Source of the DNA: a phage
Reading direction: 5' to 3' (one strand)
DNA: 64,000 nt
Sequence record: PV805630.1
A program made the position numbers and the translations under genes. Under the pieces are notes generated by a model. That model was given only the letters and a program-made list of their open reading frames with translations, was not told the origin of the DNA and did not search any database. This document shows positions 3,179 through 46,848 of this stretch, in pieces (within the stretch, counting starts at the first letter, position 1; each line of letters opens with the position of its first letter).

Positions 3179-3396
3179 TGTACATGAGCAATTATGGTAT
3201 TTGCCCAGTCTGTAAGAAAGGACGTGGAGTTGCTAATCATAAGAAGTGTAGCCGTATATTGCAGAAACAACGGAACCAGGAAGAATGGTCTAAGGTGCTG
3301 GAAAATCAGCATAAAGAAGAGAATCAACAAATGGCTGTTAGGGCATCTACTCAACGTATTCGCCGTATTAACTATATACAAGGATACCAAAAGTGA
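3175..3396 (+). CDS. Hypothetical basic protein (73 aa)
   Basis: ATG overlapping upstream stop (ATGA coupling); CPVCKKGRG motif. Confidence 0.5.
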   Translation: MMYMSNYGICPVCKKGRGVANHKKCSRILQKQRNQEEWSKVLENQHKEENQQMAVRASTQRIRRINYIQGYQK

Positions 3397-4577: not shown

Positions 4578-4580
4578 CTC

Positions 4581-4931: not shown

Positions 4932-4935
4932 GAAT

Positions 4936-4948
4936 GGTGCTCCGCACC
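4936..4948 (+). promoter_or_regulatory. Candidate virion-RNAP promoter hairpin GGTGC-TCC-GCACC upstream of RNAPII genes
   Basis: Same GC-TCC-GC core as hairpins at 207 and 1338; about 35 nt upstream of RNAPII subunit 1 start. Confidence 0.45.
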
Positions 4949-4979
4949 TTGTGGTAATTAACTAATTGGAGAATATGCG

Positions 4980-5795
4980 ATGTACTCATCTATTGAACAT
5001 CAGAAGCAACTCGAAGTACTATTCAATAAAAATCAGCTCCTGCCAAGGATGCGAAAAGAGTTCGAGGACTCCGAAGAAATTGACTTTAAGGCATTCGCTG
5101 CCTATTTGGAAATTGATTATAAGCTGCTCATTGATGCAATGGTGCAGATTGCCCTACATAAACGTGCTGACATCCAGACTATGATTGGCTCTCTCATGAG
5201 CCACTCAGATGATGCTCAGTACATCGCTGACTGTCTGTATAAGATGGCAGAGAATGACTGCTTCAACTATGACCCTACCATCGACAAATTCGGTGTTATC
5301 TATGAGATTAGTGAAGATGTACAGATGGAACTGGAAGCATTCCAGTATCCATTACCTATCGTAAGTGCTCCTAATCCTGTCAGAACTAACAGGGATACTG
5401 GTTATTACCAGACCAAAGGAAGCATTATCCTCAAGAAGAACCATCATGAGATGGATGTCTGCCTTGATCACATCAACCGTATGAATAACCAACGCCTCTG
5501 TATTAACTGGGATGTTGCTAACTATGTAAAAGACTCTCGTCCTAACATGGATAAACCCAAAGAGGGTGAAACCCGTCAGGAATATGAGAAACGTGTTAAA
5601 GCCTTTGAGAAGTACAGTCGTACTGCTAAGGAAGTAATGGAGTTAGTGACTCAAGAAGGTAATAACTTCTCACTAGCACATAAGTATGACAAGAGGGGCA
5701 GAACCTATGCCTGTGGTTACCACATTAACTATGCGGGGACCTCTTATAACAAAGCAGTCATAGAGTTCGCAGATAAAGAGCTTGTGGAGGACTAA
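4980..5795 (+). CDS. Phage RNA polymerase II small subunit (N4 gp15-like, 271 aa)
   Basis: Size and position match the N4 two-subunit RNAPII; GGAG RBS. Confidence 0.75.
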   Translation: MYSSIEHQKQLEVLFNKNQLLPRMRKEFEDSEEIDFKAFAAYLEIDYKLLIDAMVQIALHKRADIQTMIGSLMSHSDDAQYIADCLYKMAENDCFNYDPTIDKFGVIYEISEDVQMELEAFQYPLPIVSAPNPVRTNRDTGYYQTKGSIILKKNHHEMDVCLDHINRMNNQRLCINWDVANYVKDSRPNMDKPKEGETRQEYEKRVKAFEKYSRTAKEVMELVTQEGNNFSLAHKYDKRGRTYACGYHINYAGTSYNKAVIEFADKELVED

Positions 5796-6409
5796 TGAAA
5801 ATGTGCAAAGACTGTGGAGAAGTTAAAGACCTATCCCAGTTTGTACCTAAAGCATCCTGCACAGACGGCTACGAAGTACGCTGCCGTAGTTGCAGGGTAC
5901 TCAAATACAATAAAGCTGATCCAGTTAAGATGTTTAAAAAGACATATCTCTCTCAGGTGAACCACTCTGTAACGAGAGGTCATCCACCACCAGCTTATAG
6001 TCTGGAAGAGTTATATGACTGGCTGGATAACCAGCCAAACATTCATGAACTATGGGATGCTTACGTCACCAACAACTATGCTAAGGACTTAAAACCATCA
6101 ATCGACCGTATAGATGACCTTAAGCCGTATACTCTTGATAACATTCAGTTAATGACGTGGAAAGAGAATAGGGACAAAGGTGCCAAGAGCAAAAAAGAAG
6201 GTGTTATTGGGAAGCATAAACCAGTGATTGCCTACCACTTGGATGGCTCAATCTATAAAGAATTTGTTAGTACCATTGAAGCTGCTAGACATGTGTCAGG
6301 CAGAGCATGGGGAATCACCACGGTAGCTGATGGCATACCGGTAAAGGATGGAAGGGATAAGCTCTACAATCCTAAAACATACAAAGGCTACATCTGGGCC
6401 TGGAAATAA
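5795..6409 (+). CDS. HNH homing endonuclease between the two RNAPII subunit genes
   Basis: SIDRIDDLKPYTLDNIQ HNH_3-type motif; Cys-rich N-terminus CKDCGE...CRSC; C-terminal AARHVSG DNA-binding-like module. Confidence 0.75.
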   Translation: MKMCKDCGEVKDLSQFVPKASCTDGYEVRCRSCRVLKYNKADPVKMFKKTYLSQVNHSVTRGHPPPAYSLEELYDWLDNQPNIHELWDAYVTNNYAKDLKPSIDRIDDLKPYTLDNIQLMTWKENRDKGAKSKKEGVIGKHKPVIAYHLDGSIYKEFVSTIEAARHVSGRAWGITTVADGIPVKDGRDKLYNPKTYKGYIWAWK

Positions 6410-6450
6410 TCCATTAAGCGGGGCTTACGCCCAAGAAGCGGAGAAATATC

Positions 6451-7668
6451 ATGCAATTACTTACTGCCCGTGAATACCTGAAAGTAGATATCGCTAACAA
6501 CTATGGCTTAGACAAGAAGACATGGGATGAACGTATTAGCTGGTTCGATGAGAACGAAGCTAACCTGCTCAATCTGGTAGATGAAGCTGAAGAATCTGCA
6601 CTGTTCTACGCAGGTGTAAACGCATGGAAAGACATGAAAGCCGGTAAACCTATCGGTTATGCCGTAGCTCTGGATGCTACATCATCTGGTTTGCAGTTAC
6701 TGGCTTGCCTGACTGGTGACCGTTCTGCTGCTGAACTGTGTAACGTAGTTAACTACATGGGGGAGAATGGTAAGCCATTACGTCGTGATGCTTATACAGT
6801 TATCTATCACAAGATGCTGGACATCCTTGGTGAATCATCCCGTATTAAACGTAGTGATACTAAGCAGGCAGTTATGACTGCGTTCTATGGTTCAGAAGCT
6901 AAGCCTAAAGAAGTATTCGGTGAAGGTATTCGTCTCAAGACTTTTGAGAATGTAATGGAAACAGTTGCTAGTGGACCTTGGGCACTGAACAAGTTCTTAC
7001 TGCAATGTGGTAACCCGGATGCTAACCGTTACGTATGGGTACTGCCTGACAACTTCCATGCTGTCATTAAGGTCATGGTTCCAGAAGTACAGACCGTTAA
7101 CTTCTTAGGTAAGCCATTCGACATCACCCGTATGGTACAGGGTACTGAAGATAAGACTCGTATGCTCTCTGCTAACATCACTCACTCTATTGATGGGATG
7201 GTGGTACGTGAAATGCTGCGTCGTTGTAACTTCAACATGAACCAGGTGAACTATGTTAAGTCCCTCTGTGAAGGAACCAGTGAGTATATGCTGGGTACTA
7301 GCGGGAACTACGACATGGTTAGTCAACTGTGGCATAACTATGAGAAATCAGGATTCCTGTCTACCCGTATCTTTGATTATCTGGATTCTGACTCAATTAA
7401 ACTGGTTGATACAGATGTAATCATGGCTATGATTAATACTATGCCTAAGAAACCATTCCCTGTAATGACTGTACATGACTGCTTCCGTTGTCATCCTAAC
7501 TACGGTAATGATCTGCGTCGTCAGTACAATCAGATTCTGTCTGACATTGCTAAGAGTGATCTACTGGGCTTCATCCTGTCTCAGGTACTGGGACAAGAGT
7601 TCTCTGCTGGTAAGCTGGATGACAGCCTCTGGCAGGACATCCTTGAAACAGACTATGCGTTAAGTTAA
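6451..7668 (+). CDS. Phage RNA polymerase II large subunit (N4 gp16-like, T7-like single-subunit RNAP fold)
   Basis: T7 RNAP-like motif A (LDATSSGLQ), motif B (DTKQAVMTAFYGS) and motif C (TVHDCF). Confidence 0.85.
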   Translation: MQLLTAREYLKVDIANNYGLDKKTWDERISWFDENEANLLNLVDEAEESALFYAGVNAWKDMKAGKPIGYAVALDATSSGLQLLACLTGDRSAAELCNVVNYMGENGKPLRRDAYTVIYHKMLDILGESSRIKRSDTKQAVMTAFYGSEAKPKEVFGEGIRLKTFENVMETVASGPWALNKFLLQCGNPDANRYVWVLPDNFHAVIKVMVPEVQTVNFLGKPFDITRMVQGTEDKTRMLSANITHSIDGMVVREMLRRCNFNMNQVNYVKSLCEGTSEYMLGTSGNYDMVSQLWHNYEKSGFLSTRIFDYLDSDSIKLVDTDVIMAMINTMPKKPFPVMTVHDCFRCHPNYGNDLRRQYNQILSDIAKSDLLGFILSQVLGQEFSAGKLDDSLWQDILETDYALS

Positions 7669-23568: not shown

Positions 23569-25386
23569 ATGCGTTACATCACCTCTCAGGATACTGGCAA
23601 GTATCCTATTGCTATCCTCGGTCATCAAATCCGAAGGGAGGAGATGATTAAAACCTACCTGCTGCCTTATGACCTAAGCATGGAAGATTTCATCTTCCTT
23701 GAACTTCATTCTGCCCCTGGCAAGAAGAAAACTCCTGCAAGGGAGATTAAGGAGTTCATACAGCAGGAACTGCAACAAGTACTGGATGATGCAGAGACTC
23801 AATACATTATCTGTACCGATTCTGACTACTTTAAAATACTGACTAAAGAAGCTAAAGCAGAAGCTAACCTCGGCTATGTTTGTGACTCAGTATGGGGTAA
23901 GCAGAAGGTTATCTATACACCTAGTTACAGACAGGTCTTTTACGACCCACCAGTAGTGAAAGCCAAGATTGCTCAGGGTATGGATGCATTACTTAACCAC
24001 ATTCGTGGGCAGTATGCTGAACCAGGACAGGGAATTATTGAGTTTGAAGCCTATCCGGATACACCCGAAAAGATTAAAGCCTGGTTAGACCAGTTGCTTG
24101 AGATGAATAAGCCTCTGGCTATAGACATCGAATCATTCGGTTTAAAGCACTATAACGCAGGTATAGGAACTATTACGTTCTGTTGGAGTAAGACACAAGG
24201 CATAGCCTTTAATGTGGACTACGAGCCGATTAAGGGGGCTACTGAAGCCCCTTATGGGCGTATTAACAGGAATGATGTTGTTCGTAACCTGTTACGTGAG
24301 TTCTTCATTAAATACACTCAACGGCAGATGTATCACAACATTAGCTATGACGTGTACATACTTATCTATCAGTTATTCATGGATAACCTGATTGATACAG
24401 AAGGCTTACTGCATGGCATGGAAATCATGCTACGTAACTGGGACTGTACTAAGTTAATCACCTACCTGGCTACTAACAGTTGTGCCGGTAATCACCTTAG
24501 TCTGAAAGATCAGGCTCAGGAGTATGCTGGTAACTATGCTCAGGATGACATTAAAGACATACGTCTTATTCCTAATGAGCAACTGTTACGCTACAACCTC
24601 ATTGATGGTTTGTGTACGTGGTACACCTACGAGAAGCACTGGGATACTCTCATTGCTGATGACCAACTGGATGTTTACAACAACATCTTTAAACCAGCCT
24701 GTGAAGACATTATTCAGATGCAGTTAACCGGTATGCCCATGAATATGGAAACCGTTAACCAAGTAGCTGAAGAGATGGAAACTGACAGGAATCAGGCTCT
24801 GAAAACTATTCGTGAGTCTAAGCTCATGAAGAACTTCACCCTGATGCTTCGGCAGGAATGGGTAGACGATAAGAATGCTAAGCTTAAGAAGAAGCAGGTA
24901 ACACTGGCTGATTGTGACATCGAGTTTAATCCTAATTCAGGGCCACAATTACAGAAACTGTTATTTGATTATATTGGCTTACCGGTCCTTGGTCTTACTA
25001 AGAGCAAGCAACCTGCTACTGACGGTGACACTATTAAAGCACTGCGTACACATACGCAGAGTGAAGATGTTAAGGAACTGCTCAATGCACTTATCGACTA
25101 TAAACTCGTGGATAAGATTATCACTAGTTTTATACCAGCTTTCAGGAATGCCCAACCGGGGCCGGATGGCTGGCACTATCTGTTCGGAAACCTCAATCTG
25201 GGAGGCACAGTCTCCGGTAGGCTATCGGCTTCAGAGCCAAATCTACAAACAATTCCATCCGGCTCTAAATATGCCAAGAAGATTAAGAAATGCTTCGAAG
25301 CCCCACCCAGTTGTTACTTGCCAAACAGGAATAAGCTGGATACATTAATCCAGTCCCTGAAAAATACAATTGGTGGTGCCGAATGA
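23569..25386 (+). CDS. DNA polymerase (family A), N-terminal fragment: 3'-5' exonuclease plus N-terminal part of polymerase domain
   Basis: Exo I LAIDIESFG; Pol I-like SGRLSASEPNLQTIP and KKCFEAP just before the stop; catalytic motifs A/B/C absent from this ORF. Confidence 0.85.
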   Translation: MRYITSQDTGKYPIAILGHQIRREEMIKTYLLPYDLSMEDFIFLELHSAPGKKKTPAREIKEFIQQELQQVLDDAETQYIICTDSDYFKILTKEAKAEANLGYVCDSVWGKQKVIYTPSYRQVFYDPPVVKAKIAQGMDALLNHIRGQYAEPGQGIIEFEAYPDTPEKIKAWLDQLLEMNKPLAIDIESFGLKHYNAGIGTITFCWSKTQGIAFNVDYEPIKGATEAPYGRINRNDVVRNLLREFFIKYTQRQMYHNISYDVYILIYQLFMDNLIDTEGLLHGMEIMLRNWDCTKLITYLATNSCAGNHLSLKDQAQEYAGNYAQDDIKDIRLIPNEQLLRYNLIDGLCTWYTYEKHWDTLIADDQLDVYNNIFKPACEDIIQMQLTGMPMNMETVNQVAEEMETDRNQALKTIRESKLMKNFTLMLRQEWVDDKNAKLKKKQVTLADCDIEFNPNSGPQLQKLLFDYIGLPVLGLTKSKQPATDGDTIKALRTHTQSEDVKELLNALIDYKLVDKIITSFIPAFRNAQPGPDGWHYLFGNLNLGGTVSGRLSASEPNLQTIPSGSKYAKKIKKCFEAPPSCYLPNRNKLDTLIQSLKNTIGGAE

Positions 25387-26039
25387 TTGGAAAGAAATTC
25401 AATAGATTGACAATAGTAAGATTCAGTCACAAAGACAAATACTATGCAAAGCATTGGGAATGTCTTTGTGACTGTGGGAACACTACTATAGTCAATATTC
25501 AAAAATTAAAGAGTGGTCATACAAGAAGCTGTGGATGTTTACACAAGGAACGCCCGGGCAACTACAAAGATGGGCGTTCCAAGGAACTCCTATATAAGAT
25601 TTACTACGGTATTCTTGACCGCTGCCATAATGAAAAGTGTTCCACTTATTACAAATATGGAGCCAAAGGCGTAATTGTTTGCGACGAGTGGAGGAATTCA
25701 TATGAAACTTTCCGAGAATGGGCATTATCTTCTGGCTATAAAGTAGGTCTTAGTATTGACAGGATTGATTCTTACAAAGGGTACTCTCCTGACAACTGTA
25801 GGTGGGCAGATAGAAGTACCCAACAAACTAATAAGAGGGTTTGGAGTACAACTCCTTACGTTAGTTACAGTAAGTCGAAAAATAAATGGGTAGGTAGAAT
25901 TACCCATTTAGGTAAGAGAGTAGAAATCCTAGTAGATAAAGATTTAGATGCTGTTATGAATGCGGTTATTGCTTATGTATTAGCAAATAACATGGTTGAA
26001 CAGGAGAAGGTACTTCGTAATGCAGGACTTATTAAATAA
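25383..26039 (+). CDS. HNH homing endonuclease inserted in the DNA polymerase gene
   Basis: LSIDRIDSYKGYSPDNCRW HNH_3 motif; Cys cluster CLCDCG...SCGC; AP2-like C-terminus NKWVGRITHLGKRVEIL; ATG overlaps polymerase stop. Confidence 0.8.
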   Translation: MIGKKFNRLTIVRFSHKDKYYAKHWECLCDCGNTTIVNIQKLKSGHTRSCGCLHKERPGNYKDGRSKELLYKIYYGILDRCHNEKCSTYYKYGAKGVIVCDEWRNSYETFREWALSSGYKVGLSIDRIDSYKGYSPDNCRWADRSTQQTNKRVWSTTPYVSYSKSKNKWVGRITHLGKRVEILVDKDLDAVMNAVIAYVLANNMVEQEKVLRNAGLIK

Positions 26040-26991
26040 ATTAGTTAGCATAAAAGATAGAGTAACCCTGGATGACTATGATGAATTAATGCAATTAGCT
26101 AGTAAATATGACATGCAGGAACAAGTGTCTGATTGCTTTAACTATGAGGGGGGTTGGTTGTTCTGTGGCCTCGATTTTGCATCCTTAGAGGATCGCATAT
26201 CAGCCCTAACAACCAAAGACCCTAATAAATTGCGTGTATACACTGACGGGTTCGATGGACATTCACTCAGAGCTAAATTTTATTTCGGGGAACAAATGCC
26301 GGATATTGATGACTCTGTGGAAGGCATCAACTCTATACAGAAAAAATATAAGTCATTACGTAGTGAATCGAAAGCACCTACTTTCTTATTAACCTACGGA
26401 GGGACTTATATGGGCTTAATGAAAAACTGTGGTTTCTCTGAAGAGAAAGCTAAGTTAATCGAATCCAGATACCACGAAATGTATACAGTTAGTGATGCGT
26501 GGGTTCAGTCTAAGCTAGACGAAGCTGCCAAAACTGGTTATGTAACTGCTGCATTTGGTTTGAGAGTGCGTACTCCTTTACTGGCTCAGGTATTACGTGG
26601 GACATGTAAGACTCCATATGAAGCAGAAGCTGAAGGTAGGACTGCTGGTAATGCCTTGGGGCAAAGCTGGTGTCTACTTAATAACCGTGCTGGTTCAGAG
26701 TTTATGCGTAAAGTCAGAGCCAGTGAGTTCAGATTAGATATACGTCCTAGTATTCACATTCATGATGCTCAGTACTTCATGATTCGTGACAATATGGATA
26801 CCTTGCAATTCACGAACAAGCATTTGGTGGAAGCCGTTAACTGGCAAGACCATCCTGATATTGCTCATCCAGAAGTTGGTTTGGGTGGGGAACTATCCTT
26901 GTTCTACCCAACGTGGGCTAACGAGATTGAGATTCCAAATCACGCTACCCCAGAAGAAGTTCATCAAATAATTCAAAAGGCATTCGCATGA
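25996..26991 (+). CDS. DNA polymerase (family A), C-terminal fragment: palm and fingers with motifs A, B, C
   Basis: Motif A DFASLEDRI, motif B SESKAPTFLLTYGG, motif C IHIHDAQYF; homology starts about residue 50 (EGGWLF); start codon uncertain (TTG 25996 or ATG 26020). Confidence 0.8.
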   Translation: MNRRRYFVMQDLLNKLVSIKDRVTLDDYDELMQLASKYDMQEQVSDCFNYEGGWLFCGLDFASLEDRISALTTKDPNKLRVYTDGFDGHSLRAKFYFGEQMPDIDDSVEGINSIQKKYKSLRSESKAPTFLLTYGGTYMGLMKNCGFSEEKAKLIESRYHEMYTVSDAWVQSKLDEAAKTGYVTAAFGLRVRTPLLAQVLRGTCKTPYEAEAEGRTAGNALGQSWCLLNNRAGSEFMRKVRASEFRLDIRPSIHIHDAQYFMIRDNMDTLQFTNKHLVEAVNWQDHPDIAHPEVGLGGELSLFYPTWANEIEIPNHATPEEVHQIIQKAFA

Positions 26992-35568: not shown

Positions 35569-38500
35569 TTAGTTTACTAAGTTCATCCAAGGGTTCAGGT
35601 TGTGAGCACGAAGCCCCTGACCAAAGCCCCATGAGTAATCCAGACTGCCCTTAGCAGCAATACTAAAGATGTTGTCCTGAATAGGCAGGCCAACATTACC
35701 AAACATGGTAGGAGTTGGAGCCAGCATAGCCATTGCTGCATGTACCGGGTTATTACGAATCATGGACACTGCAACTTTTGCAGAACGAATCTTAAAGTTG
35801 TAGAACCACATTAAACCAACACTCTCCATATACCCACGGAAACGGCCCGGCAGACGGTCATAGTTAATGAACTCTTCGGTTACACGTCCCAGTGCTTCTT
35901 CACGAGTCTTACCTTTACGCTGGGTCAATTCATCATAGATGATTGCTTTAGCGATAAAGTCAGAGTACTCAACCGTCTTCTGGATACCCTGGAACAGAGC
36001 AGTATCCTTAGTGATAAGTGCATAACGACCAGCAGCACGTACAGACTTAGGTAACTTATCCGCCAGCTTTTCCATGTATTCGTGAAGTTTACCTTCAGTA
36101 ATCAGGATGTCATCACGACCAATACCAGCATCTGCAATTGAAGAGAACTCACCAGCTTCTATCAGAGGCCAGATACTCATACGCTTATGGCTATCAGTAA
36201 TGGACTGAATCTCAGCCTTAAGTTTACGAATCTGGTTCGGGTTAGTAGCTGCACGTAATTCTGCTTCTGCATCTACCTGACGTAAACGAGATTTAAGGTA
36301 TTGGTTAATCTCAGCAGTCTTCCGTGGAATGCTCTTAGCAATGTTCTTAACCGGTACACCACGAGCAACCATCTGGTAAAGGTTAGCCAAAAAGTTAACA
36401 ACAGGTACGACTACTGACTTAACTACAATCAGAGTCTTAGCATCTTTAACTAAATTTTGAACCAGGTTCTCACCACCCATTAAGTACTTATAGGCACGGT
36501 TACCGGCTAAACCCAGAATAGCTTTTTTAAAAGTATTAAGCGTTTCCGGGGACCAACGAGAATTACCAGACCAAGCATCACCAATCGAAGCTGCACGATA
36601 GCCAAGTGCATCATTCAGCATGTCACGACGTACCCACAGTTCACCCTCACCAAACAGTTTTTCTGCTTTCCGTCGAGTTTCGCTGTTCATCAGCTTAAGT
36701 GCATCAGCAGTTACTGGGTCCAGTTTAGAACCAAAAAGGTTCACGTACTGGGACTTATTAGCAGCAGACATCTTAAGGTCTTCCTTGTACATGCTATACA
36801 GGTTCTCAATCAGCATATCGTTGAAACGCTGAGCCTTAGCTTCTTCCACCTGACGTCCACGCCATACACCAATTGCACGGGCAAGATGATTTTCACCTTC
36901 AATATGCTTCAGCATATTAGGGTTAATTGATTGCTCATAAGCAACCACATCACCTTTAGCATTATATATGGGCAATAGTGGTTCATTACCACGCTCACCA
37001 CGAGCTAGTGCTTTAGTGATACGGTCTACAGAAGGCTTGTCAGTAATACGACCGGCTACCATGGAACCCATCGTAAAGCCTGTGCCGAGGTCTACACCAC
37101 CAGCAGTATTACGAACGCTCTGTAGGATACCTTGTGAGAATGGAGCCTGTGCCTGTACCGGTGCAAAGTAGTAGCTACTCGATGGACCTCGGTTAGCAGA
37201 GCTACCTTGATAAGTACCCAGACGAACATAGGACTTCTCTATCAAATCGCCAAACTCGCTATCTTCAGCAACAACCAGACTAACACCCTGTTTAGTCTCA
37301 CTAGGGATATACCCTTTGTACTGGTTCAGGGTTGCACGCATATTAGATTTGGCTTTAGCCATTTCATCTTTACGCTGCCCAACCAGGTAAGAAGTAGCAA
37401 AGTCCATTCCCTCAACTTCTGTCTGAGCCAGTGAAGATAACATCTCACGGTCGGACTTGTTCATTGCTTCCAGTGCATACAGGGTAATAAGTTTATCCAG
37501 TTGAGCTACATCTACAATAGGGCGAGTAGTCTTACGTTCACCCAGCATACGAGAGATTGCAGTAGCATTACGCAGCAAGTTTTTACCGACTGTGCCATTA
37601 ATCATGTACTGAGCCAGTTGCTTAGATTTACGGTTAATCAGAGGCCAGTTACGACCAGCTTGTTTCTGCAAATCTGCTTCCAGCTTATTCACTTCACGGT
37701 CAACAATCTTCTGGTCTGACAGCAGGTCACGAATTTCAGCCAGAGACATGGTGTCACGCAGGACAGCTAAGTCAGTTTTACCCATACCAGTGTGCATTGC
37801 TTTCCACTCATCCTTAGTCAGCTTACGGCTGAACTTAGATGCGATAGTGGTAGGCAGGTGTTCACGGAACTGCTGACGGTCAGCCTGCACCTGTGCACGG
37901 ACTGCTTTAATCAAATCGTATACAGAAGCATTACTCTTAGTACGACCGGTTAAGTCATTAACCAGGTCATGGAAAGGTTGCCATACTTTACCCTGGTTCA
38001 TTGCAACCATAACGCCTTCAGCTACGTTTGCACCATTCTTCTCTGTAGCAATAGCAGCCATTAGTTGTGCAGCATGAGCAGCACCTTTGACCAATGGGTT
38101 TTTGGTATTAGCTGCAACTTCACGAGCACTTTCTAAAACACGAGTAGACAGTACATCAATAGAGTCCACCAAATACTGGTTAGCACGGTCAATAGCATTA
38201 CCACTAGGAGTAGCAACGGAATCATAGAATGACTGTGCATTTAGGCTAGTCTGCATGATTGTTTGAGCCAGTGCATCCATACCTTCCTGTACGTTAGTAG
38301 CTTTAGTATCACCTGCTACACGAGCATTCAGGCTTGCCATTGCAGCAGTACCAATGTTAGTCAGCATTGCATCAACGGTATTCCCAGATTTCTTATCTGC
38401 TTTCATAACAGGAATGTTAGCCAGTACGTTACGTACCTCTTCACTTACCATTGCCAGACCAACAAAGGTAGGCAGTATTGAAGAACGGCCCTGTGCATCA

Positions 38501-41500
38501 AACTCAATATTGTTAGCACCCATGATGGTATCGAACTTCTGCTGTGCATAGTAACGGTCAGCAGGGTTAGTACTATCTGGGTCAGTCATGAATGATTCAA
38601 CAGTCAGGTTCTTAGTAACGTGTGCATAGTATTCCTGTGCACGAGAAAGAGCAGCAGGGCTAATAGCAGCTTCAGTAGCCAGTGCAGCAACAATGTTAGT
38701 AAAGAGTCGCTGTTCCTGCATATTCATAGTGAAGCCATGAGCCTGAACATCACGGGTTACTTTAGTTGCGTGCTTTTTCGCATCAGAGAACTTACCTTCA
38801 CGGATTACTTGCTGTACTGGTTCTGAACCAATGTAGTTAGTAATCAGCTTATCAAAGGTCTGTCCTAACTCTTCCAGACGGGTATTGTCACCATATGCTT
38901 TGTTATGGAACAAGGTAGTATCTTTGGCTACAGCAGCCGTAGGAGCCTGTCCACGCATAACAACTGAAGAGTTAAACAGTAAGCCAGAGAACATATCATC
39001 TGCATTAGCAGGTGCTTTCTTGCGACCGAATACTAGACGCTTGATTGCTTCATATACAGACTGAACCATGGCTTTCAGTGCAGTGGTCTTCTTCTGCTTA
39101 CCAATCAGTTCACGGTTGGTTAAGCCCCAAGCCATGTACTCATTCAGTGCAGCAGCTTTAGCCATTGCAGGTTCAATGAAGCCGTTAGACAAATGACCAT
39201 TAATGGTATTAAGTGCATCAGCATATGCTTCACGTACTGCCGGGGATTCATCCTTAACATCCAGAGTAAGGAACTGGTTCATCAAGTCTTCAATATTCTG
39301 GACTGCTTCATTAGGAGTACCCTCATAGTGAGCCAGTACAGATTCAAAGGTAGAAGCATGTACTAATTCATGAACCAGAGTCTCTAAGGAAGGGGTAACT
39401 AAGTAGATGGTTTTATCATCAAAGTTAGTCCAACCGTATGCATTACCAGCTTCGGCAGCTTCAATATCTTCTGGTGCTGGGCGAGTAATGTTCTTCTCAA
39501 TAGCATAAGCATCCAATTGAGCAGGAGTACCGTAAACAACCTTGTAGTCTTTAGCAGCAAGGGATTTCTGTATTTCTTTCAATACTGCTTGCTGTTCTGG
39601 AGACATCTCTTTAGCCAGTTTAGTAATGGCAGTATTAGACAATAGACGTACACCAGACTTAAGTACACGGCCAACCTGCTCCATCGCTGGCACTTCTTTA
39701 ACAGGTGCTTCTTTAGTAGGCACTTCTTTCACTGGTTCTGCTTTAGAAGCACGCACTGCATCACGACGCCTGTTTAATTCAGCATCAAACAGTTCGTTCA
39801 ACTTAGCTACTTGCTGGTCTACAGTCAGACCTTCCAGAGAAATTTTACCGTTGTTCACATATGGAGCACCTACAGCAGCCATCTGGTCAACAGTGGTCTG
39901 TACCTGGTTCATTACTTTGTGGCGAATATCTACACCCAGGGCAATGTTACGCAAGTTACGCTCAATGAGGTTAACACCGGAATTCTTAATCATATCAATC
40001 TTATACTGCCTGTCTCCCTCAACACGACTGATATGAGAAAGCTGTTCAAAATCTAAAGCGGAACGAGCAATGTCATCGATTGTCTTATCCGATAACTTAT
40101 CAAAGTCTACGTTCTTCATGAACTTAGAGAAGGAGTCATACACGTTCTTAATAGGGTTGCCCTGCCAAGAAGTATATACAGCCTCATTAGCTTTACGGCT
40201 TGCATCAGTAATGTCACTGATACCAATGTTCATACCATCAAAGATTTTCAAAGTATTCTTCGGTGCACCTTTCATAGTAGAAAGGGTCTGCATCATCATG
40301 CCATCACCAGTACCGATGGTCATAAACGGAATACCTGCAACACCTGCTTGTGAAGGAGCATAGATGCTCATTGGCACACGCATACGGTCATCTAAGTTGG
40401 TAGCCAGTACTTGGTTAGCAACATCAGTATTCTCACTACCAGCAATGTAGAAAGTCTGTAAACCAGTCTCAATCATTGGAGCCAGTGGAGACAAGGATTT
40501 CTGAATTTCATTCAGTTCTTTCTGTGTTAAGAAATCACCCTTCTTCCAGGTTGGGTCTTTTTCTTTTTCAGCCAGTTTAGCCTGTACTGCTTGCTGGAAC
40601 ATATCTTGCAATACCAGAGACTGAATCTGAGTAGCCTTCTGCAAGTTCTCAGTGGATTGCATCAGCCCCTCCCCAACGGTGAACCGGATACTTTGTCTCA
40701 TTGGTTCAACGAAGAAGTGCAACATGTTCTCTTGTAAGTTCTTAAGGGCAGCACCAGATACGGTAAACTCCTGGGGATTTAACTCACCAGTCAGAGCACC
40801 ATCTACTTCTTTAATAAATAACTTACCTTTACGCTTAGCTGGAATCTTACCAGTCAGTGCTTCCATAGAAGTAAGGAAGGTATCCAGCATAGCCTGAGCA
40901 TCTGCCTCAGACGCAGCCTCCTTACCAAACATTGCCATAGCTGGGGAAATGCTAGGGTCAGCAGCACGTGCTTGTAGAACGTCACTGAGGCGTTCGTAGA
41001 TGGTGTCAGTAATTGCACTAACCATCTTCCCAGCAATACCACGTGCACCAGAACCATAGATGGTAATAGTCAGTGGGTTTTTAGCGATACCACGTTTCAG
41101 GTCCAGAGTGCCATCTTCATTCAGGTTAAAGTCTTTAATGAACAGGTCCATCAACTTCTGGAGATGGTTCATCTGGCTCATAACCGGAACATTGTTACGG
41201 TAAGTAGTACGTAACTCATTTAGATAAAATTGCAGACCATTAGTAGATGCTTCATACAGGTCAACATTATCGTCAATAGAACAATGTTCATTCATCGTTT
41301 TACCAGCACGACCAAAGAACAAACCACCCTTGGCAGTATTCTTAATCCAATTTGGAGTGAACTTACCTCCAGTCATTAATACCATTGCATTGATTGGGCC
41401 GTTGGTTACACCATCAGCTTCGACATACAGTGGGGTATTAAAGTTAGCACGGTCATCACTGTTCAGGTAACGGGCATATTCCATCAGAGCCATGAGAGCC

Positions 41501-44500
41501 ACGAAGGATTTGTTATCACCCAGGGAAGACTTCAGAATATCTACTGCATCAGTAGGTAAGTAACCAGACTTATCAAACTCGACCATCATATCAACAGCAG
41601 GTTTCAGATTACCTTCTAGAGCTTTGGTCAGATTTTCAGACATAGCTTCACGGGACATTTTGTGTACCTTGATGCCTAATGCCTGGGCCAGTCCTAGCTG
41701 GAAGTCAGAGAACGCTTGGCTGTTTTCATTACTCAAGTCAATAGTGGAGAAGGTTGGCAGAATTGCTTCACGAACCAGCTTACTGGATTGTGGATTGTTC
41801 TTACCAAGCATCTGCATACGACCTACACGGGTCATGTTGTAACCGTAATGGATAGGTGTATCCAGACCATTCTCTTGTTCTTTTAGCTGATTAATTAAAC
41901 CGAACAAGGAATCATATGCCATAGATACCGATAAGTTCTTACCTTCCAGAGATTTGGCAGTGTTTTCATTCAGCAAATCAGGATTAAGAGAACCAGCACC
42001 CATCAGTTCCAGAATGCCGTCACGCCCCAATGCTTCATAGAAGTTAACCATCGGCATGTGTACACGGAACTCCGTAGCCTGTTCAGCTTTCAGAGCAGCT
42101 TTCTGTTCTGGGGTATTCCTAACCGCAGGGTTACGTAACTGAGTTTGAGCCACGGAAGGAATGTCGTCACCGAAGTACGTTTTCTCTTCCGGGTTTACCA
42201 AAACAGCTTCTTCAATTGCTGTAAGGAAATTATTAATAGGGTCTTTATCAGCCAACTTATTAATAGTGTACAAACCAATAGTCTTATTAGAGTCCGGGTC
42301 AATCTCAGACACATCCAACATAGACTCAGTAACTGCACCCATCTCGATGAGGGAAGACAGAATCTCTGTAGCCATTGCCACTGGAATACCCTTGGTATAA
42401 CCCAGTGGTGCATTAGGGTTACGGTTTAAACCCCAGTAGGATTCAATCTTTTGAGCCAGTGAGTTAGTAGCCTCAATCAGAGTCTGGGCATTATCAAACT
42501 CAGCCAGAATACTTTCTGGTAACAGAGATGCATCTACACCAGTAATAGCAGCCACGTCTTTCATGTCTTTAATGGCAGCATTCTGTGTAGCAGTCAGTCG
42601 CCATTGCAGACCAGCAAGTACAGCAGTCTCTAACAACTGGTCATTGAACTTAAAGGTATCTCCATCTTTCTCTACGATGTTAAGTAACTTACCACCTACC
42701 CAACGGTTAGCCTCAGTACCTTCTGCAAAACGTTTACCAACATTTTTATTAGCAAGGAACTTAGCCAGTCGTTCAGACAGAGTAGCCTTCAGAGTTTCCC
42801 CAAAGTCCATCAAGTCTTGATAGCGTTCTAACACATCACCTGCGAGAACGTTATTTTCTTTTTGAGTGAACGCTTCAAAGCGAGCAGCAGAAGACAGTGC
42901 TTGCTTGATATCAGCCAAAGGAGATTCAGAACCAATGGTACGGGACTTAGGTTCTTCCGGTAGGGTAAATGCCTTCAGGAACTGGTTCGGTGTCTTCTCA
43001 TTGTTATAGACAGGGAACACTGCTTCCATTCCAGAAAGGGGTTTGCCACCCACTGTATAATCTGCTTTCAGCTGAGCCAGTGATACTTCATCCTTCTCCA
43101 CGTTGTTAGTGTTACGACCAGAGGTATCTACACCAACCAGAATCTGTGCATTATTGGCTTCAACGAAAGACTGAACAGTATTGAATTGTTCAGCAGTCAG
43201 CTTCTGATTATCAAACAGTTGCAGAGATACAAATGGTTGTTCACTACCTTTATAGAAGGTAGAGCGAATAGCACCTGTATCCAGGGACATATCACGATAC
43301 CCATCATGCCCAAATACGTCGGACAGGCTGATATGGTCGCCATTAGAACCAACCACAGTACCATCAGCAAACAGCCATGGACTCTCCCTACGATCACCAT
43401 ACTTATTAAGAGTTTCCTGTGAAATAGTATTTTCTTTCACATAGGCATCTCTTTCAGATTCAGTAGGTTGCTCGATGGTATCCTCATTAGTGGGGGTAGC
43501 ATCATCTACAACCGGGCTAGTCTTTTCAGACTTAGGTACTTTCTCTTCCTGTACAGGTGTAACTTCTGGCTGGGAGAATGTATTACGTACATAGTTCATA
43601 AAATCATTACGTGCTTGAGAAGGAGAAGACCATACTTCCCGTGTGCTACGTAAACTAAAGATTCGTCCTTCAGGAGTCATTACGTAAGGTACATTTGTTT
43701 TACCGTACTTAAATGAAGTGAGTACATCTGACTTACCAGTAACAGTGCTTTCCCCTGGAATGACAATAGTCTTACCACCAGTAGAAGGAACAGCACGAAC
43801 ACCCTCAATATCCTTACCAAGAGAAATATACTCTTTACCGTTGTAATCAAAGTACTGACCTATCTGCATATAGGTAGCTTGTTGCTTACCAGTAAACTCA
43901 GCAGTTTTCATCTCCGGGCCGTTAGGTACAGACGTACTTTCAGACTTAGGCTTAGATACTTTCTCTGGTTCTGACTTAGACTCTACAGTGTTAGGAGCAG
44001 TTTTATTGTTTACCACTGGTTTAGCTTTAGACTGTACAGTAGTAGTGTCCTCTTGCACTGGTGCAGGGGTTTCATCAACCTGATTCACTGGTTCATTAGT
44101 CTGTTGGGACTGAGTGGCATTAAGACCACCTTGACGGAACTCTTTAACTACCTGGGCAGCTGGCTTGTTCAGACGTGAATCCAACGAGGTAACTTTCACA
44201 TGAGAAACATTAAGCTCCGGGTAAGCCGTAGCAAGTGCGTTAGCAATATCAGCTACGGTCTTAGCTTCCAGCGCTACTTGCTGGGCAAACTTAACAGACT
44301 TGGTATCATAAGGATTAACACCGAGGCCAGTACGACTACGTACCCATTCACGAGTAGGCGTGAGAGCCTGATAATGAACAGACTTATTCTTATCCGCATT
44401 CCCCGAAATCAGATGCTCATTCAACGCTCCGACCTTATTCTGCATGTGCTGGGCGAACTTCATAAAATCGCTCAGATAAGCGGAGGCCAAATCGAAGTTA

Positions 44501-46848
44501 CCAGAGTTATACGCAGAACGAATGCGTTTCGCATGTTGCAACGCAGAGTACTGTCCTTCATTAGAACGAGACTCGTCGGTTTTAATCTGTTTACTAACGA
44601 TGTCTTGACGACGTAAGCCCAGTTCTTCTGCTTTAGCATCATACTCACGTGCACCCTGTAACAGAGCAGCAGCTGATTGCAGGGCAGCACGTTGACGATT
44701 ATTCAGTGTAATCTTACCCTCACTCGCATGCTTCAGAACCATGTTCACTGAATCTGCATCCAGTACTTCTGGAGACACATCAGCAGCCATAGCAATGTTG
44801 TTTGCTTGGGCTTGGTTAGCTTCTTCAGTAGCTTTCAGCTTACCTGCTTCAGCCTGTTCCTGAATCATAGAATGGATGGCACGGAATGCACGAAGTACTT
44901 TAGGGGTATTCTGTATGTTAGCCATCAGACCGGAGAACTGGTCTACGATTGCAGCAGCAGGAGAACCCTGTTCCAGATTAGCCAGAGCACCTGGGTCACG
45001 GTTAATGAAGCTATCCATAGACATGATGTTGTCATACATCTGGATTGCAGCTTCCATTTGAACGTCAGGGTCTTCAGCAGTATTAACCAGGTCAGCCATC
45101 TTCTGAATAGCTTCTACACGGTTAGTGGAACCAGAAACAGCTTCACGGATTACTGGGTTGGCTTGTTCCAATTCTACCGGGTCAAACTTCATTGCCTGGG
45201 TTAAGTCAGCAGCATACTGAGTAGCAGCAGCCTTCTCTTCTGGAGTGATGTCCATTGCATCTACTGCTTCCTGTACGGTTGCCTGTGCTTGCTCTGCCTG
45301 AGCAACAGCTTCCTGTGCAGCAGCATTAACCGTAGCATCAGCTACAGGGGATGCTTGTTCATTACGCTTAGCAACTTCTTCACCACGTTGAACCAGGATG
45401 TTAGTAAGAGGGGAGGCAGCTTTTGCTAATGTTTTACCAACCAGAGAAGCACCAGCCAGGGTAGTACGAAGAGCAGGTCCAGCAGCAGCACCGGCAGCTT
45501 TAACAGTTGCACCAGGAGCCTGAGCAACACCAGCACTACCGAAGCCATAAAGTGCACCAAGACCTGCTTGCTCACCGACACCTTTGAGGGTATCTCGGGA
45601 TGCATCAACATTTTCCTTGATTGCACGGTTCTGGGCATACTGACCAAAGCCTGACTGAATACCTTCTTCAACTGTTTCACGTAGCATATTGGAACCAGCA
45701 CCAGCCAGTGAACCTACCTTAAGTGGGTTAAGTTCAAAGCGAGATACCAGTGGACCGGTAGCAGCAGCAACTGGAGCAGTTAAGCCAGCAGCAAGGATAC
45801 CTGTTTCAGATGCAGTCTGACGACGTGCTTCATCAGGAGATAAACCATCGGCAATATGTTGTTGGTAAACAGGAGACTTACTTGCCAGTTCTGGATGGGA
45901 CATCTTCATGATTTCAGAAGCAGTCTGTTGGTATGCACCACCAGCTTCCATAGCACCGATTGCAATAGCAGGTGCAGCAACACGACCAGTAGACAGTGCA
46001 ACCTGTGCAGGACGTGAACCTAACCCAGCAGCTAAGGTAATACCCTTAACAGCTTTATCACCACCTACCATTACTTTACCGAGTGCAGATACACCACGGA
46101 TAAGTGGACCACCGGTAAAGAGGGAACCAACGCCTTCACTCAGTCCATCTGAGGCAGCCATACCATTATCAAGTGTGTTAGTAACAGAGTCGAAAGCATC
46201 ACGACCAATGCGAGACAGGGAGGCAACCAAATCGCTCTCCCCGTTTTTGATGTCCTGTTCATAGAGTTTCTGGTTCTTTTGAGCAGAAATCTGGTTCTGA
46301 TTCTGAACAACTTTACGTGTAGCATTCAGTGCATCAGATTGTAGATTGTGTACGCCTTCATTCAACCAATCCATCCCGGAAGCAATGGTTGCCCCGGCAT
46401 TATCATTGACCAGACCTGCGCCAAGAGCAGCAATGCCCCCAAGGGTATTAGCAACACCAAGACCAACACCAGAAAGAGTATCGCCAAATGCTTCTGCGTT
46501 AGTACGCTGTTTAGATAAGTCCTGACGTACAGCATCCGCAGCATTAGCTCGACTATTAAGAATTTGTAGACCTTGCTCATTACCGTATTTATTAATGATT
46601 TCTAATGGGGAGGCTTGAGTGAAGTCTGCCTGAAGTGAACCTGGTTCGAATGCACCGATTCCAAGATTACCTACTCGTCCAGTCTGGAGAGTGTAAGCAT
46701 TCTCTGGGGTTAATTGGAAAGGGCTTTGCCCTTGTGCAGCTTGCTTCTGAGAGGTTGCAGTAGAGACATCGACTTGCTTAGCATTAGTGATGCTGTCTGC
46801 GAAACCTGCCAGACGGTCAAATGTTGACATAGCATGTTTCCTGTTCAA
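35569..46848 (-). CDS. Virion-encapsidated giant RNA polymerase (N4 vRNAP / gp50-like, 3759 aa)
   Basis: Single 11.3-kb ORF, hallmark of N4-like phages; internal T7-RNAP-like motif B RGIAKNPLTITIYGSG. Confidence 0.9.
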   Translation of the reverse strand: MNRKHAMSTFDRLAGFADSITNAKQVDVSTATSQKQAAQGQSPFQLTPENAYTLQTGRVGNLGIGAFEPGSLQADFTQASPLEIINKYGNEQGLQILNSRANAADAVRQDLSKQRTNAEAFGDTLSGVGLGVANTLGGIAALGAGLVNDNAGATIASGMDWLNEGVHNLQSDALNATRKVVQNQNQISAQKNQKLYEQDIKNGESDLVASLSRIGRDAFDSVTNTLDNGMAASDGLSEGVGSLFTGGPLIRGVSALGKVMVGGDKAVKGITLAAGLGSRPAQVALSTGRVAAPAIAIGAMEAGGAYQQTASEIMKMSHPELASKSPVYQQHIADGLSPDEARRQTASETGILAAGLTAPVAAATGPLVSRFELNPLKVGSLAGAGSNMLRETVEEGIQSGFGQYAQNRAIKENVDASRDTLKGVGEQAGLGALYGFGSAGVAQAPGATVKAAGAAAGPALRTTLAGASLVGKTLAKAASPLTNILVQRGEEVAKRNEQASPVADATVNAAAQEAVAQAEQAQATVQEAVDAMDITPEEKAAATQYAADLTQAMKFDPVELEQANPVIREAVSGSTNRVEAIQKMADLVNTAEDPDVQMEAAIQMYDNIMSMDSFINRDPGALANLEQGSPAAAIVDQFSGLMANIQNTPKVLRAFRAIHSMIQEQAEAGKLKATEEANQAQANNIAMAADVSPEVLDADSVNMVLKHASEGKITLNNRQRAALQSAAALLQGAREYDAKAEELGLRRQDIVSKQIKTDESRSNEGQYSALQHAKRIRSAYNSGNFDLASAYLSDFMKFAQHMQNKVGALNEHLISGNADKNKSVHYQALTPTREWVRSRTGLGVNPYDTKSVKFAQQVALEAKTVADIANALATAYPELNVSHVKVTSLDSRLNKPAAQVVKEFRQGGLNATQSQQTNEPVNQVDETPAPVQEDTTTVQSKAKPVVNNKTAPNTVESKSEPEKVSKPKSESTSVPNGPEMKTAEFTGKQQATYMQIGQYFDYNGKEYISLGKDIEGVRAVPSTGGKTIVIPGESTVTGKSDVLTSFKYGKTNVPYVMTPEGRIFSLRSTREVWSSPSQARNDFMNYVRNTFSQPEVTPVQEEKVPKSEKTSPVVDDATPTNEDTIEQPTESERDAYVKENTISQETLNKYGDRRESPWLFADGTVVGSNGDHISLSDVFGHDGYRDMSLDTGAIRSTFYKGSEQPFVSLQLFDNQKLTAEQFNTVQSFVEANNAQILVGVDTSGRNTNNVEKDEVSLAQLKADYTVGGKPLSGMEAVFPVYNNEKTPNQFLKAFTLPEEPKSRTIGSESPLADIKQALSSAARFEAFTQKENNVLAGDVLERYQDLMDFGETLKATLSERLAKFLANKNVGKRFAEGTEANRWVGGKLLNIVEKDGDTFKFNDQLLETAVLAGLQWRLTATQNAAIKDMKDVAAITGVDASLLPESILAEFDNAQTLIEATNSLAQKIESYWGLNRNPNAPLGYTKGIPVAMATEILSSLIEMGAVTESMLDVSEIDPDSNKTIGLYTINKLADKDPINNFLTAIEEAVLVNPEEKTYFGDDIPSVAQTQLRNPAVRNTPEQKAALKAEQATEFRVHMPMVNFYEALGRDGILELMGAGSLNPDLLNENTAKSLEGKNLSVSMAYDSLFGLINQLKEQENGLDTPIHYGYNMTRVGRMQMLGKNNPQSSKLVREAILPTFSTIDLSNENSQAFSDFQLGLAQALGIKVHKMSREAMSENLTKALEGNLKPAVDMMVEFDKSGYLPTDAVDILKSSLGDNKSFVALMALMEYARYLNSDDRANFNTPLYVEADGVTNGPINAMVLMTGGKFTPNWIKNTAKGGLFFGRAGKTMNEHCSIDDNVDLYEASTNGLQFYLNELRTTYRNNVPVMSQMNHLQKLMDLFIKDFNLNEDGTLDLKRGIAKNPLTITIYGSGARGIAGKMVSAITDTIYERLSDVLQARAADPSISPAMAMFGKEAASEADAQAMLDTFLTSMEALTGKIPAKRKGKLFIKEVDGALTGELNPQEFTVSGAALKNLQENMLHFFVEPMRQSIRFTVGEGLMQSTENLQKATQIQSLVLQDMFQQAVQAKLAEKEKDPTWKKGDFLTQKELNEIQKSLSPLAPMIETGLQTFYIAGSENTDVANQVLATNLDDRMRVPMSIYAPSQAGVAGIPFMTIGTGDGMMMQTLSTMKGAPKNTLKIFDGMNIGISDITDASRKANEAVYTSWQGNPIKNVYDSFSKFMKNVDFDKLSDKTIDDIARSALDFEQLSHISRVEGDRQYKIDMIKNSGVNLIERNLRNIALGVDIRHKVMNQVQTTVDQMAAVGAPYVNNGKISLEGLTVDQQVAKLNELFDAELNRRRDAVRASKAEPVKEVPTKEAPVKEVPAMEQVGRVLKSGVRLLSNTAITKLAKEMSPEQQAVLKEIQKSLAAKDYKVVYGTPAQLDAYAIEKNITRPAPEDIEAAEAGNAYGWTNFDDKTIYLVTPSLETLVHELVHASTFESVLAHYEGTPNEAVQNIEDLMNQFLTLDVKDESPAVREAYADALNTINGHLSNGFIEPAMAKAAALNEYMAWGLTNRELIGKQKKTTALKAMVQSVYEAIKRLVFGRKKAPANADDMFSGLLFNSSVVMRGQAPTAAVAKDTTLFHNKAYGDNTRLEELGQTFDKLITNYIGSEPVQQVIREGKFSDAKKHATKVTRDVQAHGFTMNMQEQRLFTNIVAALATEAAISPAALSRAQEYYAHVTKNLTVESFMTDPDSTNPADRYYAQQKFDTIMGANNIEFDAQGRSSILPTFVGLAMVSEEVRNVLANIPVMKADKKSGNTVDAMLTNIGTAAMASLNARVAGDTKATNVQEGMDALAQTIMQTSLNAQSFYDSVATPSGNAIDRANQYLVDSIDVLSTRVLESAREVAANTKNPLVKGAAHAAQLMAAIATEKNGANVAEGVMVAMNQGKVWQPFHDLVNDLTGRTKSNASVYDLIKAVRAQVQADRQQFREHLPTTIASKFSRKLTKDEWKAMHTGMGKTDLAVLRDTMSLAEIRDLLSDQKIVDREVNKLEADLQKQAGRNWPLINRKSKQLAQYMINGTVGKNLLRNATAISRMLGERKTTRPIVDVAQLDKLITLYALEAMNKSDREMLSSLAQTEVEGMDFATSYLVGQRKDEMAKAKSNMRATLNQYKGYIPSETKQGVSLVVAEDSEFGDLIEKSYVRLGTYQGSSANRGPSSSYYFAPVQAQAPFSQGILQSVRNTAGGVDLGTGFTMGSMVAGRITDKPSVDRITKALARGERGNEPLLPIYNAKGDVVAYEQSINPNMLKHIEGENHLARAIGVWRGRQVEEAKAQRFNDMLIENLYSMYKEDLKMSAANKSQYVNLFGSKLDPVTADALKLMNSETRRKAEKLFGEGELWVRRDMLNDALGYRAASIGDAWSGNSRWSPETLNTFKKAILGLAGNRAYKYLMGGENLVQNLVKDAKTLIVVKSVVVPVVNFLANLYQMVARGVPVKNIAKSIPRKTAEINQYLKSRLRQVDAEAELRAATNPNQIRKLKAEIQSITDSHKRMSIWPLIEAGEFSSIADAGIGRDDILITEGKLHEYMEKLADKLPKSVRAAGRYALITKDTALFQGIQKTVEYSDFIAKAIIYDELTQRKGKTREEALGRVTEEFINYDRLPGRFRGYMESVGLMWFYNFKIRSAKVAVSMIRNNPVHAAMAMLAPTPTMFGNVGLPIQDNIFSIAAKGSLDYSWGFGQGLRAHNLNPWMNLVN

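Follow-up and report, generated by a model that had tools for sequence, protein, structure and literature searches.

The stretch of DNA analyzed here (the window, which is phage sequence record PV805630.1 at its full length of 64,000 nucleotides, nt) comes from a Gamaleyavirus (Schitoviridae, N4-like) coliphage whose family A DNA polymerase gene is interrupted by an 843-bp insertion carrying an HNH-type endonuclease gene. We consider it probable, at roughly 85%, that this insertion is a free-standing HNH/AP2 homing-endonuclease cassette that leaves the phage with a polymerase of two polypeptides, referred to below as PolN and PolC. Comparison with related phages carries this reading. The endonuclease open reading frame (ORF) has its own start and lies between two halves that are contiguous in relatives, the cassette supplies the stop codon of PolN and the Shine-Dalgarno (SD) sequence and start codon of PolC, and the two halves together with their cassette-borne extensions appear to be under purifying selection as protein. 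An earlier note on this DNA had placed two explanations side by side, a free-standing endonuclease and a group I intron with the endonuclease inside it. The first is favored here by the coding extensions, by the conserved SD/ATG and stop/start junctions and by transfer between diverged polymerases, and the second is not supported.

The polymerase gene is split at one site and keeps one reading frame

Three ORFs occupy the locus, at 23569-25386 (605 amino acids, aa), 25383-26039 (218 aa) and 25996-26991 (331 aa when counted from a TTG), and the locus shows 90-95% identity to that of Gamaleyavirus phages. The Pfam profile DNA_pol_A matched residues 432-581 of PolN (profile positions 11-150) as well as the third ORF (profile positions 131-303), PHROG DNA polymerase families matched both PolN and PolC, and PolC could be aligned to Taq polymerase and to 7r0k. 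With its DNA_pol_A matches, motifs A, B and C, and collinearity with intact relatives, the split gene encodes a family A polymerase of the N4 gp39-like type found in Schitoviridae, which confirms the earlier description of such a polymerase divided by an HNH gene.

In about 60 other relatives, such as ECBP1, the polymerase is a single uninterrupted gene of 2580 nt. Alignment to the intact ECBP1 polymerase, a check suggested in the earlier note, placed the insertion at 25309-26151, between codons P580 and G581 (..KKCFEAPP/GW(L/I)FCGLDFASLEDR..) and eight codons upstream of the motif A aspartate, and showed that PolN and PolC are adjoining parts of one gene, 843 bp apart. Around this site the ECBP1 polymerase reads ..TGCTTCGAAGCACCCCCAGGTTGGATCTTT... 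The sequences meeting at a cassette-free junction are ..GCCCCACCC/GGTTGGTTG.., and the peptide spanning a joined polymerase would be CFEAPPGWLFCGLDFASLEDR. The junction had previously been drawn as PP/EGGW; the alignment moves it to ..CFEAPP/GW.., with the 'EG' belonging to the insertion.

The PolC ORF had also been assigned to a different frame from PolN, which is incorrect: the two ORFs are offset by 2427 nt (25996 minus 23569, or 3 x 809), the insertion measures 843 nt (3 x 281), and PolN and PolC share a reading frame. Across the insertion this frame holds 16 stop codons, which rules out read-through or bypass. The overlap of the endonuclease ORF with both polymerase ORFs was upheld, since the TGA of PolN overlaps the endonuclease ATG (ATGA, 25383-25386) and 20 nt at the 3' end of the endonuclease gene are shared with the PolC gene when the latter is counted from ATG 26020. 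PolC likely starts at this ATG and not, as first listed, at TTG 25996, which gives a protein of 323 aa; the annotations of phages phi G17 and U1G place the start at the same position. Among five close copies (the window and phages phi G17, PGN829.1, U1G and ST4), the stretch 25996-26039, containing the SD sequence, the ATG and the dual-coding overlap, is invariant, and every diverged copy retains an AAGGT 8 nt ahead of the ATG, with MQ[DE]L at the start of the protein. A scan for promoters and terminators between 23000 and 27500 gave nothing above shuffled sequences.

Substitution patterns indicate that both polymerase halves are kept under strong purifying selection, with 155 of the 190 variable sites in PolN and 116 of the 160 in the homologous part of PolC lying at third codon positions. 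DNA polymerase is one of the 17 core genes of this phage family (PMC7650795).

The cassette adds a tail and a leader that evolve as protein

The cassette adds a 25-aa tail to PolN and a 44-aa leader to PolC (Table 1), where about 20 and 50 nonhomologous codons had been estimated; the last 22 of the 44 leader codons turned out to copy PolN 559-580. Diverged copies were found by searching with the leader, which returned 116-aa proteins sharing it, and with the endonuclease, which returned orthologues on short contigs. After ..CFxxPP, their tails follow the pattern [SA][CY]YL[PT]....L..LI[QK]S[LI]K....GA-stop, and their leaders follow MQ[DE]L[LI]..L.S.....[ST][LI][DE].[YF][DE].[LI]..[LI]A.KY....[VLI]..CF.Y..GW. 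Five diverged cassette lineages, with endonucleases of 58-62% identity, have kept both the tail and the leader peptide. In the window, these extensions include the peptides LDTLIQSLK in the PolN tail and VTLDDYDELMQLASK and YDMQEQVSDCFNYEGGWLFCGLDFASLEDR in the PolC leader.

The five close copies differ at 13 sites within the leader (26040-26151), and 10 of these fall on third positions of PolC codons (P = 0.0017). We also compared the leader with its diverged counterpart in the metagenomic record L108 over the last 112 nt of the cassette. In the PolC frame, the proportion of synonymous differences (pS) was 0.93, which is saturated, and that of nonsynonymous differences (pN) was 0.32, whereas the other two frames showed no synonymous excess (pS 0.44 and pN 0.41; pS 0.23 and pN 0.48). 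The tail gave pS of 0.66-0.81 against pN of 0.26-0.39, in the PolN frame only. Judging from these patterns, both cassette-borne extensions are translated as protein. Such coding-type evolution of the flanks, together with the conservation of AAGGT and the ATG, fits separately translated halves and is hard to reconcile with an intron.

Residues 23-44 of the leader are a degenerate copy of PolN 559-580. Aligned ungapped and in register, the two segments score +12.9 with BLOSUM62 against -20.2 +/- 7.8 for shuffled sequences (p = 4.5e-4), and only 1 of 791 other polymerase 22-mers scores as high against this part of the leader. Moreover, phmmer places both segments on the same Taq residues, 289-309, and the Pfam profile ranges of PolN and PolC overlap at positions 131-150. 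The likeness has disappeared at the DNA level, with 18 of 66 identities by manual count. When the leader was first compared by local alignment with the 60 residues preceding the junction, its score did not differ significantly from shuffled sequences (p = 0.05, equal to the control), and a gapped 'SKY..CF' alignment proved misleading and was superseded by the fixed-register test and the independent Taq alignments, which agree on an ungapped copy. In register, the tail scores -25 against the post-junction residues and leader residues 1-22 score -31 against the polymerase; without likeness on these sides, a simple two-sided tandem duplication is rejected. The copied segment begins within two codons of the site at which phage PhAPEC7 carries a group I intron, and it may be speculated that the cassette once sat at that site.

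In the copy, the basic residues of the source have been lost, with EQVSD in place of KKIKK. Leaders are without exception acidic (-4 to -7), tails are mostly positively charged (+1 to +4), and PolN 559-580 has a charge of +4, a pattern that suggests an electrostatic docking role for leader and tail. A homologue search with the end of PolN plus the tail found no match, and the 44-aa leader, searched against 1.84 billion representatives, matched only one unrelated repeat protein. Apparent leader matches in records L094-L096 and L103 turned out to be intact polymerases.

Table 1. Features of the split polymerase locus in the window
Feature	Position	Strand	Basis or remarks
PolN homologous part (residues 1-580; 3'-5' exonuclease, thumb, ..GRLSASEPNLQTIP..KKCFEAPP)	23569..25308	+	Pfam DNA_pol_A, PHROG 17, collinearity with ECBP1
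Mobile cassette, 843 bp (tail, endonuclease gene and leader)	25309..26151	+	Missing from ECBP1 and about 60 relatives
PolN C-terminal tail from the cassette, SCYLPNRNKLDTLIQSLKNTIGGAE, plus TGA	25309..25386	+	25 codons; conserved in diverged copies
GGTGGTG, SD-like, of the endonuclease gene	25372..25378	+	G-rich, 4-10 nt before the ATG in all copies
Putative free-standing homing endonuclease gene, 218 aa	25383..26039	+	Cys-rich beta domain, PacI-like HNH (beta-beta-alpha), C-terminal AP2
AGGAGAAGG, SD sequence and likely ATG (26020) of PolC, inside the 3' end of the endonuclease gene	26002..26022	+	
PolC leader residues 1-22, MQDLLNKLVSIKDRVTLDDYDE, acidic, not polymerase-like	26020..26085	+	Conserved in L108, L110, L111, L113 and L114
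PolC leader residues 23-44, LMQLASKYDMQEQVSDCFNYEG, degenerate copy of PolN 559-580 (LQTIPSGSKYAKKIKKCFEAPP)	26086..26151	+	
PolC homologous part, residues 581-860 plus stop; motifs A (GLDFASLEDR), B (KAPTFLLTYGG) and C (HIHDAQ)	26152..26991	+	

The cassette is shared by diverged polymerases

The same three-ORF layout was found in phi G17, PGN829.1, U1G and ST4, with insertions 90-93% identical. Overall, the cassette was present in 7 of 75 records, and within the phage collection only in those four phages. GenBank labels the locus of the published carriers as two 'DNA polymerase I' coding sequences and an HNH gene. We found no paper discussing the polymerase split in phi G17, PGN829.1, U1G or ST4, and published accounts of U1G, and of four Gamaleyaviruses with virion proteomics, do not mention it. 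Neither the endonuclease nor PolC, used as queries against IMG/VR, retrieved further cassette copies.

A more distant copy lies on the metagenomic contig L109 (Logan ERR12350041), the polymerase of which is only 52% identical to that of the window at the amino acid level and 61% at the nucleotide level, and 66% identical over the 100 nt adjoining the junction. The L109 cassette, by comparison, is exactly 843 nt long, 90.7% identical, and inserted at the same codon boundary. The cassette of ST4 also sits in a different flank background. The presence/absence polymorphism, the identical boundaries and a cassette more conserved than its flanks are signs of horizontal spread, and these comparisons show the cassette to be one mobile unit moving between polymerases that are only about 52% identical.

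Around the insertion, polymerase nt 1600-2200 (equivalent to 25170-25770 of the window) is mosaic among Gamaleyaviruses that are otherwise 92-97% identical, with segments ranging from 62 to 98% identity. Between the window and PhAPEC7, for instance, identity is 97% up to the junction, 62-64% over the next 160 nt and 96% thereafter. The mosaic stretch fits repeated endonuclease-driven exchange, and the distribution of the cassette shows the sequence pattern of homing with short co-conversion tracts.

The endonuclease has a predicted PacI-like HNH fold and an AP2 domain

PHROG assigns the middle ORF to 'HNH endonuclease' families, with E-values from 5e-62 (PHROG 374) to 4e-25 across PHROG 374, 3377 and 2081. 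No Pfam HNH model matched the protein or any of its 30 homologues, and the Pfam AP2 domain was found in 3 of the 30 homologues and not in the protein of the window. In an AlphaFold2 (AF2) model built from the 30-sequence alignment (pLDDT 89), the Cys-rich beta domain at the N terminus is followed by a helical region, then by a beta-beta-alpha unit resembling a solved HNH enzyme, and last by a C-terminal AP2 fold, in which a three-stranded sheet packs on a helix. The 'HNH-AP2' label given earlier thus gains support from the predicted fold.

The motif D126-R127...N138-C139-R140-W141 is invariant in the 30 homologues. The canonical His...Asn...His triad is absent, with Arg replacing the first His as in the aligned PacI segment. 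Residues C27, C29, C31, C50 and C52 are likewise invariant in the family and likely form a zinc site. PacI (PDB 3ldy/3m7k) is a 142-aa restriction enzyme without an AP2 domain; unlike it, the cassette protein has the additional N-terminal Cys-rich beta domain and the C-terminal AP2 domain. In the endonuclease gene, 68 of 99 variable sites fall at third codon positions, which implies that the gene is maintained.

Alternatives to a free-standing cassette

Among the alternatives, a group I intron with the endonuclease inside it, whose splicing would restore a continuous polymerase mRNA, survives best, and even this one we regard as improbable. It would account for the precise insertion at a conserved site, for the terminal G at 26151 (which is weak evidence, lying within a run of six G) and for a possible P1/P10-like pairing at the junction. 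A real group I intron bearing an HNH gene lies 23 codons upstream in the polymerases of PhAPEC5, PhAPEC7 and Shigella phage Moonfish, and the genome paper on phage Pollock terms its polymerase insertion 'intron-encoded' (PMC4319500). We searched for such an intron with Rfam, as the earlier note had suggested. No family, RF00028 included, matched the window at gathering scores, and none matched 25100-26400 at E <= 10; no intron match was obtained in phi G17, and none at E <= 1 in L108 or L109. As a positive control, the PhAPEC7 insertion matched Intron_gpI (E = 1e-6, 38 bits) with R and S elements present, indicating that the same search detects a real intron in this very gene.

Further features expected of an intron are also lacking. 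There is no U·G pair at the 5' junction: the window, phi G17 and ST4 have C as the final exon base, and PGN829.1, U1G and L109 have a U that faces A. The PhAPEC7 junction, by comparison, folds into a P1 with a U·G pair. The 3' flank of the insertion is no more structured than shuffled sequences (z +0.12), against z -2.33 for the 3' flank in PhAPEC7, and no covariation was seen among 35 predicted pairs. The endonuclease ORF leaves only 74 + 112 nt of the insertion uncovered, and the 112 nt on the 3' side show protein-coding evolution in the PolC frame, differing by 44% in L108 without a compensatory pattern. The conserved SD sequence and ATG of PolC also speak against splicing.

The possible P1/P10-like pairing belongs to a predicted RNA hairpin at 25295-25382 (-26.3 kcal/mol, z -2.63), with an inner 7-bp stem at 25334-25353, that pairs the junction with the SD sequence of the endonuclease gene. 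The hairpin is retained in the close copies, with one G·U change in L109, and lost in L110 and L113, a loss that counts against a role in splicing. By analogy, we take it to be a lineage-specific element that controls translation of the endonuclease gene; hairpins of this kind have been described for other free-standing endonuclease genes (PMC2677866).

Several points nevertheless weigh against a free-standing cassette and a two-polypeptide polymerase. The evidence for the two polypeptides is comparative throughout. RF00028 is only weakly sensitive to ORF-bearing phage introns, with the control itself scoring 38 bits against a gathering score of 50, and a very divergent ribozyme could be missed by this model. 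In the hairpin, GGUGG is the partner of CCACC at the exon end, and ACAAUU that of AGUUGU, with which the insertion begins; by our own inspection, GGUUG of the second exon could pair with CAAUU, which is formally P1/P10-like. Introns and inteins, too, typically insert precisely at the same codon boundary and have a length divisible by three. When only the five close copies are considered, the codon periodicity of the tail is not significant (codon-position counts of 4, 1 and 5). Finally, hydrophobic moments and amphipathicity of tail and leader do not exceed those of shuffled sequences and only the charge pattern is consistent, so that assembly of PolN and PolC through their tails is an analogy, not a result.

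Alternatively, the tail and leader might be the halves of a very small split intein, joining PolN and PolC by protein trans-splicing as in 'fractured genes', which we find less likely still. The order of host N-terminal half with tail, endonuclease, and leader with host C-terminal half is indeed that of fractured genes (PMC2677866), and the tail starts with S-C or A-Y right after the host sequence. However, a tail of 24-25 aa and a leader of 22-44 aa fall far below the size of a Hint fold, and DNA_pol_A is the sole Pfam match in either half. Gly581 occupies the +1 position in place of Cys, Ser or Thr, and there is no terminal His-Asn, as the leader ends in ..CFxYxxG in all lineages (..YEG in the window).

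More doubtful again is an inactivated gene, that is, a two-piece pseudogene in a phage replicating with another polymerase. Nothing beyond the interruption itself favors it, and it is contradicted by the third-position bias of both halves, by the place of the polymerase among the core genes of the family, and by the persistence of the split in diverged lineages as well as in five viable lytic isolates or assemblies. An error of sequencing or assembly, a caveat raised earlier, is excluded, because four independently sequenced phages have the same layout and the 843-bp insertion with its intact 218-aa ORF recurs at this position in independent genomes of South African, Indian and Egyptian origin and in metagenomes.

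Neighboring insertions

The intron of PhAPEC7 (record L002, 2174-2877) is inserted at P557/N558, equivalent to about 25239 of the window, which is itself without an intron at this site. In PhAPEC5, PhAPEC7 and Moonfish, the intron carries an HNH gene that is unrelated to the one in the cassette and has DNA-level relatives in the polymerase regions of T7-like phages. A third insertion, with an HNH_3 endonuclease, splits the polymerase about 95 nt downstream of the cassette site (about 26247 of the window). It occurs in SP5M (L004, 2337-3031), PD205, AlfredRasser, VEc25 and others, 15 records in all, and also in L109 (5329-5868). The piece upstream of this insertion ends in ..KVY+MG..VY.V.I.G..HHIRDD.T...DGKT.TGEEFY.., and the downstream piece starts with M..F..L.KST.D....I..VK.VG...GYDGH. 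The endonucleases of the three Gamaleyavirus polymerase insertions are mutually unrelated.

On L109 (positions 2580-6700 of a 21.8-kb contig), the polymerase is in three cistrons, of 595, 116 and 289 aa, with two different endonuclease genes between them. The middle piece of 116 aa consists of the leader, motif A and the tail of the second cassette. Sequence comparison marks the locus as a homing hotspot, in which about 160 nt accommodate three elements and the surroundings have evolved as a mosaic.

Elsewhere in the window, ARAGORN found no tRNA gene (1-64000), and the minus strand contains an ORF of 3759 aa (35569-46848), presumably the virion RNA polymerase typical of N4-like phages.

Proposed mechanism and implications

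In the explanation that we favor, a free-standing cassette has inserted precisely between P580 and G581 of the polymerase gene and, as comparison with relatives shows, provides the stop codon of PolN, its own endonuclease gene, and the SD sequence and ATG for PolC. With neither RNA nor protein splicing, PolN (exonuclease and thumb, 605 aa) and PolC (palm and fingers, 323 aa) would be translated separately from one transcript and reassemble noncovalently. The basic end of PolN with its tail and the acidic leader would probably act as docking elements, by analogy with the mobE-derived tails of NrdA in phage Aeh1. During co-infection, the endonuclease would cut cassette-free polymerase alleles, and recombinational repair would copy the cassette into them, which amounts to homing.

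A further reading, which we put forward tentatively and at somewhat less than even odds, is that the cassette is a portable 'gene-splitting module', in which tail and leader serve as adaptors that leave a working two-subunit enzyme after the split at PP/GW. Such a module would let the cassette spread between polymerases as little as 52% identical. The SP5M-type cassette would then follow the same logic, and the two could coexist to give a three-piece polymerase such as that of L109. This reading is supported by the second cassette type, which has conserved tails of its own, and by the three-piece polymerase.

The cassette adds a case to the known genes-in-pieces arrangement, and near-identical copies already stand uncharacterized in a few published genomes. 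Annotators and one genome paper call interruptions of N4-like polymerases 'introns'; of the three neighboring insertions one is a true intron, and that of the window is probably not. The annotation should accordingly change to two subunits, each with an extra peptide. If tail and leader do dock the halves, they constitute a natural, transferable system that splits a family A polymerase just before motif A, which would help to explain how fragmentation of an essential enzyme is tolerated and would offer a lead for engineered split polymerases. If the module is portable, homing endonucleases would have, next to introns and inteins, a third general means of residing inside essential genes.

Comparison with known systems

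Group I introns with HNH genes are known from the family A polymerase genes of several phages, including SPO1/SP82/Bastille, PhiI/W31, phiL7 and Pf-WMP3 (PMC3428280). Like those introns and that of PhAPEC5/7, the cassette targets a conserved part of the same gene, with mobility that would be HNH-driven. Those introns have a recognizable IA2 ribozyme core, their 5' splice site bears a U·G pair, and splicing has been demonstrated for several; the cassette lacks both the core and the pair, and its flanks are coding.

Replicative polymerases in two cistrons are also known from T4-related Aeromonas phages, where the split products gp43A and gp43B co-purify and are active (Petrov, Ratnayaka and Karam 2010, as cited in PMC2988022). 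According to the same citation, PolB is split in phages 25 and 44RR, and a putative homing endonuclease gene lies between the halves in phage 25. These enzymes differ in belonging to family B, and the endonuclease is of the GIY-YIG (seg-like) type, with an uncertain role in the split.

For fractured genes, a model has been proposed in which an invading endonuclease gene supplies the stop codon and the initiator Met, including in the invasion of genes without inteins (Dassa et al. 2009, PMC2677866). The locus described here resembles them in gene order, in the overlap of the endonuclease with the downstream half, in a Met that comes from the invader, and, in some copies, in a hairpin before the endonuclease start. 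Unlike them, it has no intein halves, so that trans-splicing is not expected, and its endonuclease is of the HNH/AP2 type and not GIY-YIG or Vsr-like.

Phage Aeh1 of Aeromonas offers a further parallel, with mobE, likewise a free-standing HNH gene, splitting the essential gene nrdA at a catalytically important region (Friedrich 2007; Crona 2011, PMC3045599). There, as in the window, the insertion gives a C-terminal and an N-terminal tail with no RNA or protein splicing, a point that for the window we infer. The insertion-derived tails of the split NrdA are essential for activity (PMC3045599), and a comparable function is assigned to those of PolN and PolC by analogy. In contrast to Aeh1, the host gene here is a family A polymerase, the leader includes a degenerate stretch copied from the host gene, and the tails are conserved parts of the cassette across diverged lineages and not the product of a single event.

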